NCBI RefSeq assembly: GCF_988242995.1
Contig: NZ_OZ547043.1
Length of the DNA: 64,000 bases
Strand: one strand, 5' to 3'
The notes beneath the pieces are model-generated. The model worked only from the letters and a program-made list of their open reading frames with translations, was not told the DNA's origin and made no database searches. Positions within the stretch are counted from its first letter, which is position 1. Each line of letters begins with the position of its first letter. This document shows, piece by piece, positions 40,750-46,640 of the stretch. Both the position numbers and the translations under genes were made by a program.

Positions 40750-40947
40750 CACCTACCAACGCGCCGTTATTTCCTGACGGCGCAGTAAATTCCTGCCAAA
40801 TATCGACTCACGTCACATTTTTTTGATCACGATTTGGTCCCTCAAAATGTGAGACGCTTCGATCCTCTTTTTCTCCCGTTCACCTACTATACGCTTGAAG
40901 TTGTCCATGATTGTCCATAGACAACTGTAAATGTTCAGGTGCGCGCC

Positions 40948-41694
40948 ATGAAATCATTAAGTAAGTCGTCACAAATACCGCTCTATCAACAAGTGGTGGA
41001 GTGGATAAGAGAAAGTATTTATACCGGGGATTTGGTGGAAGACGATCGCATTCCTTCGGAATACCAGATTATGGATATGCTGGAAGTGAGTCGGGGAACC
41101 GTTAAAAAAGCAGTCGCCCAACTGGTAAAAGAAGGCGTGTTGATTCAGGTCCAGGGGAAGGGAACATTTGTCAAAAAAGAGAACGTGGCATATCCGTTAG
41201 GTGAAGGATTATTGTCATTCGCGGAATCGCTGGAAAGCCAGAAAATACACTTTACCACTGAAGTTATTACGTCACGGATTGAACCGGCTAATCGTTATGT
41301 GGCAGAGAAATTAAGAATAACGCCCGGTCAGGATATTCTTTACCTTGAGCGTTTACGTTCAATTGGTGATGAAAAAGCGATGCTGATAGAGAACCGTATC
41401 AATATTGAGCTATGCCCCGGCATCGTGGAAATCGATTTTAATCAACACAATTTATTTCCAACAATAGAAAGTTTGTCGCAAAGAAAAATTCGTTACTCGG
41501 AAAGTCGCTATGCCGCGCGATTAATTGGTAATGAACGCGGTCATTTTTTAGATATCAGTGAAGATGCACCCGTTTTGCATCTGGAGCAGTTAGTCTTTTT
41601 CTCCCGAGAGTTACCCGTTGAGTTTGGCAACGTCTGGTTAAAAGGAAATAAATATTATCTGGGTACCGTGCTGCAACGGCGGGAATTGAGTTAA
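40948..41694 (+). CDS. GntR/HutC-family transcriptional regulator (HTH + UTRA effector domain)
   Basis: ATG at 40948 with upstream AGGTG (track start 40939 is GTG); N-terminal GntR HTH (IPSEYQIMDMLEVSRGTVKKAVAQLVKEGVL...GKGTFV); not part of K-12 at this position. Confidence 0.8.
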   Translation: MKSLSKSSQIPLYQQVVEWIRESIYTGDLVEDDRIPSEYQIMDMLEVSRGTVKKAVAQLVKEGVLIQVQGKGTFVKKENVAYPLGEGLLSFAESLESQKIHFTTEVITSRIEPANRYVAEKLRITPGQDILYLERLRSIGDEKAMLIENRINIELCPGIVEIDFNQHNLFPTIESLSQRKIRYSESRYAARLIGNERGHFLDISEDAPVLHLEQLVFFSRELPVEFGNVWLKGNKYYLGTVLQRRELS

Positions 41695-41718
41695 ATACAC
41701 TTTTTTATGAGGAATAAA

Positions 41719-42192
41719 ATGCAAGGCATACAGTTTCAGGAAAATTATATTCAACGACTTCCGGCAGGGTTAAGCGTTGAACAGATCATCCGTCAGTTAG
41801 CGCAACCGTTGGTTGCTGCTGAGCTGGTGGTCCCTGATTTTGCCGATCACGTACTGAAACGTGAGGCGACGTACCCAACAGGGCTGCCTACCGAACCGCC
41901 GTGCGTCGCTATTCCGCACACGGACCATAAACATGTCAGGCACAATGCAATTGCCGTCGGCATCCTGCCGGAACCGGTAGAGTTTGCCGATATGGGCGGC
42001 GATCCTGACCCCGTACCTGTCAGGGTGATTTTTTTGCTCGCCTTAAGCGAAAGTAATAAACAATTAAATGCCCTGGGCTGGATTATGGAGATGATTCAGG
42101 ATACGCCCTTTATGCGCGCCCTGCTTACGATGGAAACAACAGAAATACACACAGTAATCTTAAACAAAATGAAAGAACGAGGTGAAATATGA
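41719..42192 (+). CDS. PTS EIIA component, galactitol (GAT) family
   Basis: GatA-like motifs (YPTGLPTEP ... VAIPHTDH); start taken at ATG after GAGGA (track start 41707). Confidence 0.75.
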   Translation: MQGIQFQENYIQRLPAGLSVEQIIRQLAQPLVAAELVVPDFADHVLKREATYPTGLPTEPPCVAIPHTDHKHVRHNAIAVGILPEPVEFADMGGDPDPVPVRVIFLLALSESNKQLNALGWIMEMIQDTPFMRALLTMETTEIHTVILNKMKERGEI

Positions 42193-42470
42193 GTCAAACC
42201 ATTTTATTTGTCTGCGCCACGGGTATTGCCACATCCACGGCGGTAACAGAAAAAGTCATGGAATATTGTAAAGAGCACGGTCTTAACGTCAATTATTCCC
42301 AAACCAACGTTGCCTCTTTACCTGGAAATACTGACGGCGTAGCACTGGTAGTCTCAACGACTAAAGTGCCTTATGAACTCGACGTCCCGGTGGTTAACGG
42401 CTTGCCGATTATTACCGGTATTGGCGAAGAGAAAGTACTGGCGCAAATTGTTTCGATCCTTAAAAAGTAA
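42189..42470 (+). CDS. PTS EIIB component, galactitol (GAT) family
   Basis: 93 aa; phosphocysteine motif near the N-terminus (ILFVCATGIATST) like GatB; 4-bp overlap with EIIA. Confidence 0.78.
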   Translation: MSQTILFVCATGIATSTAVTEKVMEYCKEHGLNVNYSQTNVASLPGNTDGVALVVSTTKVPYELDVPVVNGLPIITGIGEEKVLAQIVSILKK

Positions 42471-42546: not shown

Positions 42547-43905
42547 ATGAACGATATCGCGCATACCCTCTATAATATTGTGCAATATATATTGGGATTT
42601 GGTCCCACGGTAATGTTGCCGTTGGTGTTATTTATTCTTGCTCTCTTTTTTAAAGTAAAACCCGCTAAAGCCTTACGTTCGTCATTAACGGTCGGTATTG
42701 GTTTTGTCGGTATTTATGCCATTTTCGATATTCTTACCAGCAATGTCGGGCCAGCGGCCCAGGCGATGGTTGAACGCACCGGAATTAATTTACCGGTGGT
42801 GGATTTAGGCTGGCCGCCGCTTTCCGCTATTACATGGGGTTCGCCAATTGCCCCGTTTGTTATTCCCCTGACTATTCTGATTAACGTGGCGATGCTGGCG
42901 TTAAATAAAACCCGCACCGTTGACGTAGATATGTGGAACTACTGGCATTTTGCCCTTGCCGGTACGCTGGTTTATTACAGCACCGGCAGCCTGTTCTTTG
43001 GTTTGCTGGCAGCGGCGATTGCTGCGGTGGTAGTACTTAAACTCGCCGACTGGTCTGCGCCACTGGTACAAAAATACTTTGGCCTGGAAGGGATCTCTTT
43101 GCCGACGCTCTCTTCGGTGGTGTTCTTTCCGGTCGGTCTGTTGGTCGACAAAATCATCGACCATATCCCCGGCCTCAATCGTATTCATATCGATCCGGAA
43201 ACCGTACAGAAAAAGTTTGGCATATTCGGCGAACCGATGATGGTTGGTACTATTCTGGGCATTCTGCTCGGCGTAATTGCCGGATACGATTTCAAAAAAG
43301 TCTTGCTGCTTGGCATCAGCATTGGCGGTGTGATGTTCATCCTGCCACGCATGGTTCGCATTCTGATGGAAGGTTTATTACCGCTGTCTGAAGCCATTAA
43401 AAAGTATCTCAATGCCAAATACCCTGACCGTGACGATCTCTATATCGGCCTGGATATCGCCGTTGCCGTAGGTAACCCAGCGATTATCTCCACCGCCCTG
43501 CTGCTGACGCCAATCTCGGTCTTTATCGCGTTTGTCCTTCCGGGTAATGAAGTCCTGCCGCTTGGCGACCTTGCCAACCTGGCGGTAATGGCGTCGATGA
43601 TTGCTTTAGCCAGCCGTGGCAACATTTTCCGCACCGTTCTGGCGGCGATTCCGGTGATTATTGCCGATCTGTGGATTGCGACTAAAATCGCGCCGTTTAT
43701 TACCGGAATGGCGAAAGACGTTAATTTCAAATTTGCCGAAGGCTCCAGCGGCCAGGTCTCCAGTTTCCTTGATGGCGGTAACCCGTTCCGCTTCTGGCTG
43801 CTGGAAATCTTCAACGGCAATCTCATCGCCATTGGTCTGGTGCCGGTTATTGCCCTGGTACTGTATGGTATTTTCCGAATGACGCGGAGCACGGTTTATG
43901 CCTGA
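42547..43905 (+). CDS. PTS EIIC permease, galactitol (GAT) family
   Basis: About 452 aa polytopic membrane protein; ATG at 42547 preceded by AAGAGG (track start 42517 is GTG). Confidence 0.75.
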   Translation: MNDIAHTLYNIVQYILGFGPTVMLPLVLFILALFFKVKPAKALRSSLTVGIGFVGIYAIFDILTSNVGPAAQAMVERTGINLPVVDLGWPPLSAITWGSPIAPFVIPLTILINVAMLALNKTRTVDVDMWNYWHFALAGTLVYYSTGSLFFGLLAAAIAAVVVLKLADWSAPLVQKYFGLEGISLPTLSSVVFFPVGLLVDKIIDHIPGLNRIHIDPETVQKKFGIFGEPMMVGTILGILLGVIAGYDFKKVLLLGISIGGVMFILPRMVRILMEGLLPLSEAIKKYLNAKYPDRDDLYIGLDIAVAVGNPAIISTALLLTPISVFIAFVLPGNEVLPLGDLANLAVMASMIALASRGNIFRTVLAAIPVIIADLWIATKIAPFITGMAKDVNFKFAEGSSGQVSSFLDGGNPFRFWLLEIFNGNLIAIGLVPVIALVLYGIFRMTRSTVYA

Positions 43906-45406
43906 TAACAGCGCAGCTATCGTTATCGATATTGGCACCACCAATTGCAAAGTCACCTGCTTTTCCTGCCTGGACGCAACGACGTTGGGCGCGCATAAAT
44001 TCGTGACGGCAAAACAGATCTCCCCACAGGGCAATGTCGATTTCGATATCGACGCCCTCTGGCAGGAGGTCCGCCAGGCGATAGCGCAACTGAACGCCGC
44101 TTCGCCGCTGCCAGTCAGGCGGATAAGCATTGCCAGTTTTGGCGAGTCAGGCGTGTTCCTTGACGAGCATGGCGAGATCCTGACGCCAATGCTGGCATGG
44201 TATGACCGTCGCGGTGAAGAGTATCTGGCTACACTTAGCGAGGCAGACAGTGCGGCACTTTATGACATTTGCGGGTTACCGCTGCACAGCAATTACTCTG
44301 CCTTCAAAATGCGTTGGTTGCTGGAACATTACCCACTGCGTAATCGCCGCGGCCTGCGTTGGCTACATGCGCCGGAAGTACTGCTCTGGCGGCTGACCGG
44401 CGAACAGCGCACGGATATCACCTTAGCCAGCCGCACGCTGTGTCTGGACGTGCGCAAAGGCGCATGGTCAGTGAAAGCGGCGGCGTTGTTACACGTTCCC
44501 TGTTCAGCATTTGCGCCATTGGTGCAGCCAGGCGAACACGCCGGATGGGTCAGCGAGTCGCTCTGCAAAACGCTTGGGTTCTCGCAACCGGTCAGCGTGA
44601 CGCTGGCCGGACATGACCATATGGTGGGTGCGCGAGCGTTGCAGATGATGCCGGGCGATATCCTTAACTCGACGGGGACCACAGAAGGTATTCTGCAACT
44701 GGATACACAACCGACGCTGGATGAACAGGCCAAACGTGACAAGCTGGCAAACGGCTGTTATTCGCTTGCAAACCAGTTCACCCTGTTTGCGTCGCTGCCC
44801 GTGGGCGGTTTCGCTCTGGAGTGGCTGCGTAACACGTTCCGGCTAACCGATGAGGAGATCGCCGCATCACTTACTCGCGGACATGCGGATTACCTGGCGG
44901 GGAACTGGTCGCTCGATGACATTCCCCTCTTTATTCCACATCTTCGCGGTTCGGGTTCGCCCTATAAAAATCGCCATACTCGTGGATTATTTTATGGGCT
45001 TGGCGATACGTTAAATATCGACATGTTAATTGCCAGCGTCTCACTGGGATTAACCATGGAATTTGCCAACTGCTTCGCCTGTTTTAATGTGCCTGGCACC
45101 AGCGCGTTAAAAGTGATAGGTCCGGCAACCCAAAATCCCCTTTGGCTGCAATTAAAAGCGGATATTTTACAGCGTCCGGTTGAAGCAATTGCATTTAACG
45201 AGGCGGTTTCTGTCGGAGCATTATTAACTGCCGCACCGGATATTCCACCGCCGCAAGTTACCATAGCCCAACGTTTGTTACCGAATCGGGCGAGATACCA
45301 TCAATTACAGCGTTATCAGCACAAATGGAAAAGCTGGTATCAGTTGAAATTACAGCAAGAAGGCGTGATGCCATTACACCATCGGGAGGAGCACTATGTT
45401 GAGTAA
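43898..45406 (+). CDS. FGGY-family carbohydrate kinase
   Basis: 502 aa; N-terminal actin-fold phosphate-1 motif (AIVIDIGTTNCKV) and FGGY-type glycine-rich segments; 8-bp overlap with EIIC gene. Confidence 0.7.
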   Translation: MPDNSAAIVIDIGTTNCKVTCFSCLDATTLGAHKFVTAKQISPQGNVDFDIDALWQEVRQAIAQLNAASPLPVRRISIASFGESGVFLDEHGEILTPMLAWYDRRGEEYLATLSEADSAALYDICGLPLHSNYSAFKMRWLLEHYPLRNRRGLRWLHAPEVLLWRLTGEQRTDITLASRTLCLDVRKGAWSVKAAALLHVPCSAFAPLVQPGEHAGWVSESLCKTLGFSQPVSVTLAGHDHMVGARALQMMPGDILNSTGTTEGILQLDTQPTLDEQAKRDKLANGCYSLANQFTLFASLPVGGFALEWLRNTFRLTDEEIAASLTRGHADYLAGNWSLDDIPLFIPHLRGSGSPYKNRHTRGLFYGLGDTLNIDMLIASVSLGLTMEFANCFACFNVPGTSALKVIGPATQNPLWLQLKADILQRPVEAIAFNEAVSVGALLTAAPDIPPPQVTIAQRLLPNRARYHQLQRYQHKWKSWYQLKLQQEGVMPLHHREEHYVE

Positions 45407-45665
45407 AACCGTGGAGGTCAGAAACAGTACTGGCCTGCATGCACGTCCGGCGGCGTGTCTGGTGAAAGCCGCCAAAAAGTTTAGCTGTAAAGTGACGCTG
45501 CATTATGAGGGTAATGATATTAATGCCACCAGCATGATGAATATTATGCGCGCCGGAATAAAAGGCGGCAAAACGGTGGAAATACGCTGCGAAGGCGATG
45601 ATGAAAATGAGGCAATACAAACTCTCACTGCCTTATTTCGTGACCGCTTCGGTGAAGCTGAATAA
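45396..45665 (+). CDS. HPr-family phosphocarrier protein (operon-specific paralog)
   Basis: 89 aa; active-site His context GLHARPAA identical in pattern to HPr His15; strong SD GGGAGGAG. Confidence 0.8.
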   Translation: MLSKTVEVRNSTGLHARPAACLVKAAKKFSCKVTLHYEGNDINATSMMNIMRAGIKGGKTVEIRCEGDDENEAIQTLTALFRDRFGEAE

Positions 45666-45695
45666 TTAACTGATATTAAAAGATGAGGTTTTCAA

Positions 45696-46547
45696 ATGCC
45701 ATTAGTTAATGGACGGATACTGCTCGACCGCATTCAGGAAAAACGGGTATTAGCGGGCGCGTTTAATACCACCAATCTGGAGACGACGATTTCAATTTTA
45801 AACGCCATTGAGCGTTCAGGATTACCCAACTTCATTCAGATTGCGCCCACCAATGCACAACTCTCGGGATACGATTACATTTATGAAATCGTGAAACGTC
45901 ACGCCGATAAAATGGATGTTCCGGTCAGTCTTCATCTGGATCACGGGAAAACTCAGGAGGATGTTAAACAGGCGGTGCGCGCGGGCTTTACCTCGGTCAT
46001 GATTGACGGTGCCGCATTATCTTTTGAAGAGAATATCGCTTTCACCCAGGAAGCTGTCGATTTCTGTAAATCCTATGGCGTACCGGTTGAAGCGGAGCTG
46101 GGGGCGATTCTCGGCAAAGAAGATGATCACGTCAGCGAAGCCGATTGCAAAACGGAACCGGAAAAGGTGAAGACCTTTGTCGAGCGCACCGGTTGCGACA
46201 TGCTGGCAGTTTCTATTGGCAACGTTCATGGCCTGGACGATATACCGCGTATCGATATCCCCCTGCTGAAGCGCATTGCCGAAGTCTGCCCGGTGCCGCT
46301 GGTTATTCACGGCGGCTCCGGTATCGCCCCGGAAATATTACGCAGCTTTGTTAATTATCGCGTCGCTAAAGTAAATATCGCCAGCGATCTGCGCAAAGCG
46401 TTTATCACCGCCGTCGGCAAAGCGTATGTGAATAATCACAACGAGGCGAATCTGGCACGAGTGATGGCATCAGCAAAAAACGCCGTCGAGGAAGATGTGT
46501 ATAGCAAAATCCTGATGATGAATGAGGGGCATCGGTTGGTTAAGTAA
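45696..46547 (+). CDS. class II ketose-bisphosphate aldolase (GatY/KbaY/FbaA family)
   Basis: 283 aa; metal-binding His motifs (HLDHG, VIHGGSG) typical of class II tagatose/fructose-bisphosphate aldolases. Confidence 0.8.
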   Translation: MPLVNGRILLDRIQEKRVLAGAFNTTNLETTISILNAIERSGLPNFIQIAPTNAQLSGYDYIYEIVKRHADKMDVPVSLHLDHGKTQEDVKQAVRAGFTSVMIDGAALSFEENIAFTQEAVDFCKSYGVPVEAELGAILGKEDDHVSEADCKTEPEKVKTFVERTGCDMLAVSIGNVHGLDDIPRIDIPLLKRIAEVCPVPLVIHGGSGIAPEILRSFVNYRVAKVNIASDLRKAFITAVGKAYVNNHNEANLARVMASAKNAVEEDVYSKILMMNEGHRLVK

Positions 46548-46640
46548 ATCTTCGCCGGATGCGGCGTAAAACAACTACAATTCAATAAATTGTACCGATG
46601 CGTAGACCCTATAAGCTTACGCATCGGGCAACTGTATTTA
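46548..46640. repeat. REP-like palindromic elements at island/core junction
   Basis: gccggatgcggcgtaaa and cgatgcgtagaccctataagcttacgcatcgg palindromes between the aldolase gene and yhhJ. Confidence 0.7.

Follow-up and report, generated by a model that had tools for sequence, protein, structure and literature searches.

An operon-private HPr paralogue in a GAT-family PTS island of Escherichia coli, a candidate dedicated phosphocarrier

Why does a seven-gene sugar phosphotransferase (PTS) island of Escherichia coli carry an HPr gene of its own? HPr is normally promiscuous towards EIIA proteins, and other GAT-family systems of E. coli make do with the general HPr, which counts against the need for a private carrier. 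In the 64-kb stretch of DNA that we analysed (the window), the gene in question is an open reading frame at 45396..45665 (+) that begins with ATG and encodes an HPr-family phosphocarrier of 89 aa starting MLSKTVEVRNSTGLHARPAAC... The signature GLHARPAA occupies residues 13-20, with the His15 codon (CAT) at 45438-45440 and with Arg17 present, and the codon of Ser46 (AGC) lies at 45531-45533. This is the sixth gene of the cassette. The TAA stop codon of the preceding FGGY kinase gene, at 45404-45406, gives an 11-nt overlap with the HPr start, and a Shine-Dalgarno sequence, GGGAGGAG, can be read from the sequence at 45384..45391 (+), inside the 3′ end of the kinase gene. That Shine-Dalgarno sequence is kept in the Escherichia and Citrobacter loci, the overlap and ribosome-binding site are conserved across an Escherichia/Citrobacter/Pantoea clade, and the HPr genes of the other clade (G2, below) share a conserved upstream AGGAG motif. 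RefSeq has an entry at identical coordinates, 'HPr family phosphocarrier protein' (WP_000949583.1); the reading frame is a genuine, intact gene that had been annotated before. A preliminary description of the locus had reported an operon-private, 89-aa HPr with GLHARPAA, placed between kinase and aldolase genes and overlapping the kinase stop by 11 nt, and our coordinates, motif and Pfam and TIGR matches agree with it throughout.

The island consists of seven co-directional, tightly packed genes, all on the plus strand, between nikR and the convergent yhhJ-rbbA-yhiI genes. It opens with a GntR/UTRA (HutC-type) regulator at 40948..41694 (+), identified by its Pfam GntR and UTRA domains and given here from the RefSeq start; the mechanical reading frame runs from a GTG at 40939. 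The EIIA gene at 41719..42192 (+) encodes a PTS_EIIA_2 protein of the fructose/mannitol/galactitol class (PF00359, E=2e-33), in which the histidine of the signature VAIPH is His71 when numbered from the reading-frame start at 41707. A galactitol-type EIIB with active-site Cys9 follows at 42189..42470 (+) (PF02302; GatB-like by NF007643), and then, at 42547..43905 (+) from the RefSeq start (reading frame from 42517), an EIIC of the GAT (galactitol) family (PF03611, E=3e-91). Because its score against TIGR00827, 475.6 bits, lies under the cut-off of 542.2, this EIIC is not a GatC equivalog. The FGGY-family carbohydrate kinase at 43898..45406 (+), with Pfam FGGY_N and FGGY_C domains, fell under the cut-off of every named NCBIfam kinase equivalog, and among solved structures it comes nearest to glycerol kinases, with scores of only about 85-88 bits. 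Behind the HPr gene, the cassette ends at 45696..46547 (+) with a class II ketose-bisphosphate aldolase of the F_bP_aldolase family (PF01116, E=1e-81), whose score of 556.7 bits exceeds the NF005943 equivalog cut-off of 364. The kinase, EIIA and EIIC all stayed below the cut-off of every named NCBIfam equivalog.

The locus is chromosomal, and a 5.9-kb stretch around the HPr gene is 99.8% identical to E. coli strain MEW. G+C content ranges from 41 to 58% in the cassette, from 54 to 62% in the upstream nik genes and from 52 to 60% in the genes downstream. A scan for promoters and terminators returned counts near those of shuffled sequence. The uropathogenic 'vpe' PTS operon was considered as an identity for the island and rejected, as vpe lies on a different island, beside deoK.

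Membership of the product in the HPr family was unequivocal. Pfam PF00381 (PTS-HPr) matched with E=2.2e-30 over positions 2-80 of the 81 in its profile, scoring 105 bits where the cut-off is 23, and TIGR01003 matched with 105.9 bits against a cut-off of 47.9. An AlphaFold2 model (pLDDT 96.8) predicts the canonical HPr topology, beta-alpha-beta-beta-alpha-beta-alpha, with strands at 2-7, 32-37, 40-43 and 60-66 and helices at 16-26, 47-52 and 70-82. The predicted fold superimposes on the Thermoanaerobacter HPr 3le3 with a TM score of 0.95 and an rmsd of 0.9 A.

The named HPr subfamilies, on the other hand, did not accommodate the protein. It scored 56.5 bits against the PtsH equivalog NF008104 (PRK10850; cut-off 153), with 32% identity to PtsH, and its gene lies between FGGY kinase and aldolase genes rather than in a ptsH-ptsI-crr context, where the K-12 ptsH adjoins ptsI. 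With the NPr (PtsO) equivalog NF008146 it reached 51.9 bits against a cut-off of 119 (31% identity), and the rpoN-hpf-ptsN-rapZ-npr context of NPr is likewise missing. The FPr/FruB model NF008319 gave 64.1 bits against a cut-off of 302, with 29% identity to the HPr domain of FruB. The protein also differs from a DhaM-type HPr in being a single domain, scoring 52.7 bits against a cut-off of 520, and a Pfam scan found no Dak1 or Dak2 genes in the E. coli cassette. A 594-aa protein (P0209) that had been considered as a kinase-HPr fusion proved to be a Sel1-repeat protein with two HPr domains and was rejected.

Comparisons of the sequence point away from the host's own HPrs. The clades of cassette HPrs share 26-32% identity with E. 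coli PtsH, NPr and the FruB HPr domain. Against solved chains, the cassette HPr scored 79.7 bits with the Thermoanaerobacter HPr and 57-63 bits with Bacillus-type HPr and Crh, compared with only 48.5 bits for E. coli HPr and 41.9 for NPr, and its helix 2, SMMNIMRAG, is nearer to the Gram-positive SIMGVMSLG than to the enteric SLFKLQTLG. By these comparisons, the gene did not arise through recent duplication of ptsH, npr or fruB, and is of foreign ancestry. When 1.84 billion cluster representatives were searched exhaustively with HMMER, no full-length relatives came up above 65% identity and none between 65% and 49%. The nearest relatives from outside these cassettes, P0211 and P0216, are private HPrs inside other GAT-family PTS cassettes, in which an Mga/PRD regulator and an Aldolase_II gene are joined in some cases by Dak1/Dak2; the P0211 gene lies directly 3′ of Dak1/Dak2 genes. 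One of these cassettes sits in a serA...zapA-pepP-ubiH context and looks Enterobacterales. Since P0211 and P0216 are themselves private HPrs, a private HPr appears to recur with GAT-family cassettes in Enterobacterales. A second GAT cassette with a private HPr is absent from E. coli.

We then asked how regularly an HPr accompanies the cassette, scanning one genome per species by kinase alignment and identifying the seven proteins at each locus. HPr was present in 28/28 Enterobacterales cassettes of this species-representative scan, in four gene orders, and four additional Enterobacterales loci from other sources also have it. With R for the GntR regulator, K for the FGGY kinase and Ald for the aldolase, order A (Escherichia, Citrobacter) reads R-IIA-IIB-IIC-K-HPr-Ald; order B (the Pantoea group), R-Ald-IIA-IIB-IIC-K-HPr; and order C (Salmonella, Klebsiella oxytoca, Cedecea, Rahnella, Trabulsiella and others), R-IIA-IIB-IIC-K-Ald-HPr. 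A divergent cassette, type 2, found in Erwinia, Raoultella and Pantoea rwandensis, reads IIA-IIB-IIC-K ... R-Ald-HPr. In Firmicutes and Coriobacteriia, whose cassette hosts include Enterococcus, Selenomonas, Pectinatus, Lacticaseibacillus and Collinsella, an HPr gene lay within 7 kb of only 3/28 PTS cassettes, the other 25 having the same transporter, kinase and aldolase without it; few independent lineages underlie this contrast of 28/28 with 3/28. All three exceptions are loci of Bacillus type, with two extra Zn-dependent dehydrogenases and a typical Bacillus HPr, and no EI gene was found near them. E. coli and Enterococcus cassettes are 77% identical in EIIC, 68% in EIIB and 69% in aldolase, and such high identity across phyla points to horizontal exchange of the cassette, presumably in the direction from Firmicutes to Enterobacterales.

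Within Enterobacterales the cassette HPrs fall into two clades. G1 (bootstrap 274/300) comprises orders A and B, in which the HPr gene directly follows the kinase gene and Ser46 is kept. The larger clade, G2 (296/300), comprises order C and type 2, in which the HPr gene follows the aldolase gene, and here residue 46 is Gly in 22/22 sequences. Identity between G1 and G2 HPrs is only 44%, and the two formed a joint monophyletic group in 12/300 bootstraps of an 89-aa alignment that is too short to resolve the point. The relay positions are invariant: His15 and Arg17 in 33/33 cassette HPrs (and again in alignment A2), and EIIA His71 and EIIB Cys9 in 60/60 cassettes. Thus the active-site histidine survives careful alignment, and the alignment for a Ser46 equivalent, which the preliminary description had suggested, places one in the E. 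coli cassette HPr. Against its Escherichia, Citrobacter and Pantoea orthologues the HPr gene has a dN/dS of 0.05-0.25, and by this measure it is under purifying selection.

Divergence of HPr does not mirror that of its predicted partner EIIA. The G2 HPrs of order C and of type 2 are 63% identical, while the EIIAs of the same cassettes share only about 30%, and HPr divergence correlates best with that of the neighbouring aldolase gene (r=0.78). That it does not track EIIA argues against tight HPr-EIIA co-adaptation. The E. coli aldolase resembles those of order C, and the E. coli kinase and HPr are Pantoea-like; this pattern of co-divergence would be most simply accounted for by modular recombination.

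In E. coli the island is an accessory element, with at least 80% of it present in 1635/5426 complete genomes (about 30%). Its counterpart in O157:H7 Sakai is ECs_4349-ECs_4355, where the HPr, ECs_4354, is 94% identical to the window protein. An HPr allele with a frameshift (A6 to A5 at about codon 28, leaving 32 + 57 aa) occurs in draft and short-read assemblies. The HPr gene is present in 1452 complete E. coli genomes; a match of at least 99% to the frameshift allele occurred in none of them, and an exact match to the intact allele in 535. The frameshift allele is rare or an assembly artefact, and it therefore provides no evidence that the HPr is dispensable.

Earlier records of the gene are scattered. 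Comas et al. 2008 list NP_312381 (Sakai), NP_290053 (EDL933) and NP_756145 (CFT073) as extra HPrs without a group (PMC2405797); NP_312381, the one of the three that was compared with the island, matched the Sakai cassette HPr. The same authors count six HPr-encoding paralogs in E. coli K-12 alone (PMC2405797), so that the statement of the preliminary description that dedicated HPrs are uncommon in enteric PTS operons holds for most sugar-specific operons, which lack an HPr of their own, but gives too sparse a picture of HPr paralogs at large. In EDL933, contents of the bovine small intestine, rectum and rumen raised expression of the HPr gene Z4879, listed as 'phosphocarrier protein', about 4- to 6-fold over M9-glucose, and Z4875-Z4877 (EIIA, EIIB and EIIC) were induced more than Z4879 in most of the same conditions (PMC6199705). 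The homologous Salmonella genes STM3779-3785 have been described as a complete PTS of unknown specificity that is A+T-rich and H-NS-repressed (PMC3604774). Literature searches by locus tag and keyword returned nothing functional beyond one transcriptome, and no phosphotransfer or genetic experiment for the cassette HPr or its Salmonella counterpart. The gene is thus known and catalogued; as far as we could find, a strict link between the private HPr and Enterobacterales has not been reported.

We consider it probable that the cassette HPr is a dedicated EI-to-EIIA phosphocarrier of the island's own PTS, working like FPr. We infer each phosphotransfer step, the requirement for a carrier of its own and the chemistry of the pathway. 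His15 of the cassette HPr would receive a phosphoryl group from Enzyme I (PtsI) of the host and hand it on to His71 of EIIA, from which it would travel to Cys9 of EIIB and then to a sugar imported by the GAT-family EIIC. The lack of a dehydrogenase in the cassette makes a ketose the probable substrate. The FGGY kinase would place a second phosphate, taken from ATP, and the class II aldolase would cleave the resulting bisphosphate to trioses. HPr would be translated together with the kinase by way of the 11-nt overlap, and its presence would make a horizontally acquired, Firmicute-like PTS module dependent on the host for EI only. It is also possible, if doubtful, that the private HPr is an adaptor for host compatibility, in which case a Firmicute-type GAT cassette would work in Enterobacterales only with its own Gram-positive-like HPr, enteric PtsH docking poorly on the foreign EIIA. 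Such an adaptor would explain both the contrast between the Enterobacterales and the Firmicute or Coriobacteriia cassettes and the private HPrs of the other Enterobacterales-like GAT cassettes.

The preliminary description had taken the private HPr as a sign of a regulatory phosphorelay rather than of transport. The protein would then serve mainly to signal the state of the PTS or of the substrate to some regulator or enzyme, in the way that NPr works with PtsN, and among the K-12 HPr paralogs only NPr is, to our knowledge, regarded as purely regulatory. That NPr, a standalone E. coli HPr paralog, is regulatory (PMC2405797) lends this idea some weight, as do the Ser46 of the E. coli cassette HPr and the solved complexes of HPrs with FruR, Rsd and glycogen phosphorylase among its fold matches in the PDB, which illustrate that HPrs bind regulators and enzymes. 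The island itself, however, offers no obvious recipient: by Pfam its regulator has GntR and UTRA domains only, with neither PRD nor EIIA, and the kinase has a lysine (Lys224) at the position relevant to control by phospho-HPr (below). The larger clade has Gly in place of Ser46, most gamma-proteobacteria lack HPrK (PMC2405797), and the score against the NPr family falls well short of its cut-off. The HPr gene, moreover, always stands beside a complete EIIA, EIIB and EIIC whose phosphorylation sites are invariant, so that the relay required for transport is entire. There is nothing positive in favour of a regulatory relay by the cassette HPr, and we regard it as unlikely.

It is quite improbable, too, that the HPr is a working but redundant passenger, kept by linkage only, with PtsH equally able to serve the cassette. 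The promiscuity of HPr towards EIIAs would allow this, and it would fit both the correlation of HPr divergence with the adjacent aldolase gene instead of EIIA and the standing of HPr as the fastest-diverging protein of the cassette (its E. coli and Salmonella copies are 44% identical, those of the other six proteins 61-90%). A mere passenger, however, would not be expected to show the low dN/dS of this gene, its retention in all the Enterobacterales cassettes through at least three rearrangements of gene order, or the want of any disrupted allele among the 1452 complete E. coli genomes that have it. The position of the gene raises one further reading, in which the partner is a neighbouring enzyme: phospho-HPr would activate the FGGY kinase, as with Firmicute GlpK, or donate its phosphoryl group in a DhaM-like manner, or HPr would modulate the aldolase. 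In the Escherichia/Pantoea clade the HPr gene does overlap that of the kinase, and in the other clade it comes straight after the aldolase gene; its divergence is best correlated with that of the aldolase, and the related P0211 gene comes directly after Dak1/Dak2. In Enterococcus, phospho-HPr phosphorylates GlpK at His232. An alignment to the structure of an H232R mutant puts Lys224 of the island's kinase at this position, in a loop that is variable across the family, and we rejected GlpK-type control of the kinase by phospho-HPr. Invariant in the family alignment, by comparison, are D11-G13-T15, G238-H239-D240 and G408 with N413, which we take to be nucleotide-binding motifs of the FGGY/ASKHA fold and which as such fit an ATP-dependent kinase. 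Firmicute cassettes, furthermore, run the same kinase and aldolase without a linked HPr, and we find a role as enzyme partner very hard to credit.

A dedicated carrier would have consequences beyond this locus. If it is shown to be required, the cassette HPr would be the second clear enteric sugar-specific HPr, after FPr, and would test whether carrier compatibility limits the horizontal transfer of PTS modules; if it acts as an adaptor, incompatibility between HPr and EIIA would be a real barrier to the spread of PTSs, repeatedly overcome by co-transfer of HPr. Should PtsH substitute fully, the gene would be an unremarkable, redundant passenger. Many E. coli strains have the island as an accessory trait, O157:H7 Sakai among them, and in Salmonella a homologous island is a marker of S. 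enterica subspecies I. We rate the link between private HPr and Enterobacterales as an only moderately interesting lead.

Among known systems, the STM3779 island of Salmonella, with orthologues in Klebsiella, Cedecea and Rahnella, is homologous to that of E. coli and likewise has a private HPr. Identities between the two are 82% for GntR, 61% for EIIA, 84% for EIIB, 89% for EIIC, 63% for the kinase and 90% for the aldolase. The Salmonella HPr, however, belongs to a separate, well-supported clade, with only 44% identity and with Gly46, and its gene follows the aldolase rather than the kinase. The HPrs of Firmicutes (Thermoanaerobacter tengcongensis 3le1, Bacillus) are the best solved-structure matches, at 45% identity, and share the Met-rich helix 2; these are general HPrs, regulated by HprK/P at Ser46, whereas no HprK is expected in the host of the cassette HPr. 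PtsH has in common with the cassette HPr the fold, the His15/Arg17 active site and Ser46; the cassette HPr differs in its Gram-positive-like helix 2 and in being encoded by an accessory gene, found in about 30% of complete genomes. NPr and the cassette HPr are both free-standing enteric HPr paralogs with a partner of the PTS_EIIA_2 class, but the cassette HPr is linked to a complete EIIB/EIIC transporter and catabolic enzymes and lies outside the rpoN operon. The closest parallel in function would be FPr (FruB), which is also a sugar-specific, HPr-type carrier encoded in the operon of a PTS with a PTS_EIIA_2-class protein. In FPr, encoded in fruBKA, the HPr domain is fused to EIIA-Fru and a central M domain in a protein of 376 aa, and the cassette HPr is a free-standing protein of 89 aa; the FPr operon and the cassette would nonetheless be alike in needing the host for EI only.

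The E. coli cassette looks mosaic in origin. Its kinase and HPr (45396-45665, plus strand) bear their best resemblance to the Pantoea-type cassette, at 70% and 62-63%, respectively (window 45396-46547 compared with L002/L016), whereas the aldolase (45696-46547) matches the Salmonella/Klebsiella type (L005/L017) at 90-91% and Pantoea at only 73%. These differing affinities suggest that the 30-nt spacer between the HPr and aldolase genes is the site of a recombination breakpoint. The 3′ flank also varies. In O157:H7 Sakai (L096:19577-20208) and at a second comparison locus (L094:4116-4747), the aldolase gene is separated from yhhJ by a hicAB toxin-antitoxin pair; in the window, the corresponding interval (46548-46637) lacks hicAB and the two convergent genes are only about 90 nt apart.

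The HPr gene itself has an apparent second allelic form. Loss of one nucleotide from an A6 run breaks the protein into fragments of 32 and 57 aa in several assemblies that are drafts or built from short reads (L094:2906-3174 and L095:2906-3174; equivalent window position about 45470-45480). The frameshifted allele was matched at ≥99% by 0 of 1452 complete E. coli genomes, 535 of which contain an exact match to the intact allele. The frameshift probably reflects either an error in assembling the homopolymer or an allele of low frequency.

Gene starts and names differ between sources. Mechanically called open reading frames begin further upstream than the RefSeq genes by 9 nt for the regulator (40939 versus 40948), 12 nt for EIIA (41707 versus 41719) and 30 nt for EIIC (42517 versus 42547). 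The Sakai annotation designates the kinase fucK and the aldolase gatY; both proteins score under the cut-offs of the equivalog models that match these names.

A divergent cassette, type 2, was found in Erwinia, Raoultella and Pantoea rwandensis (L040, L045, L046, L058, L060, L061, L073 and L080). Its genes are ordered IIA-IIB-IIC-kinase and, after a gap of ~1.2 kb, GntR-aldolase-HPr. The regulator, aldolase and HPr are similar to those of the Salmonella-type module (68%, 84% and 63% identity), but EIIA, EIIC and the kinase are far apart from their counterparts, with only 30%, 56% and 38% identity. Two different transporter-kinase modules are therefore joined to one regulator-aldolase-HPr module. 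The kinase-aldolase core is older and more widespread than its PTS-linked form, since Actinobacteria carry an aldolase-FGGY kinase pair without any PTS genes (L050, L051, L055, L056, L064-L070, L074 and L077), often alongside a GntR regulator and additional kinases of the FGGY family.

Possession of a private HPr extends to other GAT-family PTS cassettes (L089:110-7267; L091/L092:2014-7267), which are composed of IIA-IIB-IIC, an EIIA-domain-containing Mga/PRD regulator and Aldolase_II, with or without Dak1/Dak2, and in which HPr comes last. One such cassette, inserted with serA on one side and ygfA-zapA-pepP-ubiH on the other, belongs to an Enterobacterales-like genome and is absent from E. 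coli. A further variant, in Bacillus and Peribacillus (L049, L057 and L059; for example, L057:2416-11642), carries its EIIB genes in duplicate and encodes two Zn-dependent dehydrogenases behind the kinase and, at its end, a typical Bacillus HPr that keeps Ser46; there is no EI gene near these cassettes. Taken together, this gene content suggests that the Bacillus-type variant, equipped with an HPr of its own, is a polyol-utilising form of the pathway.
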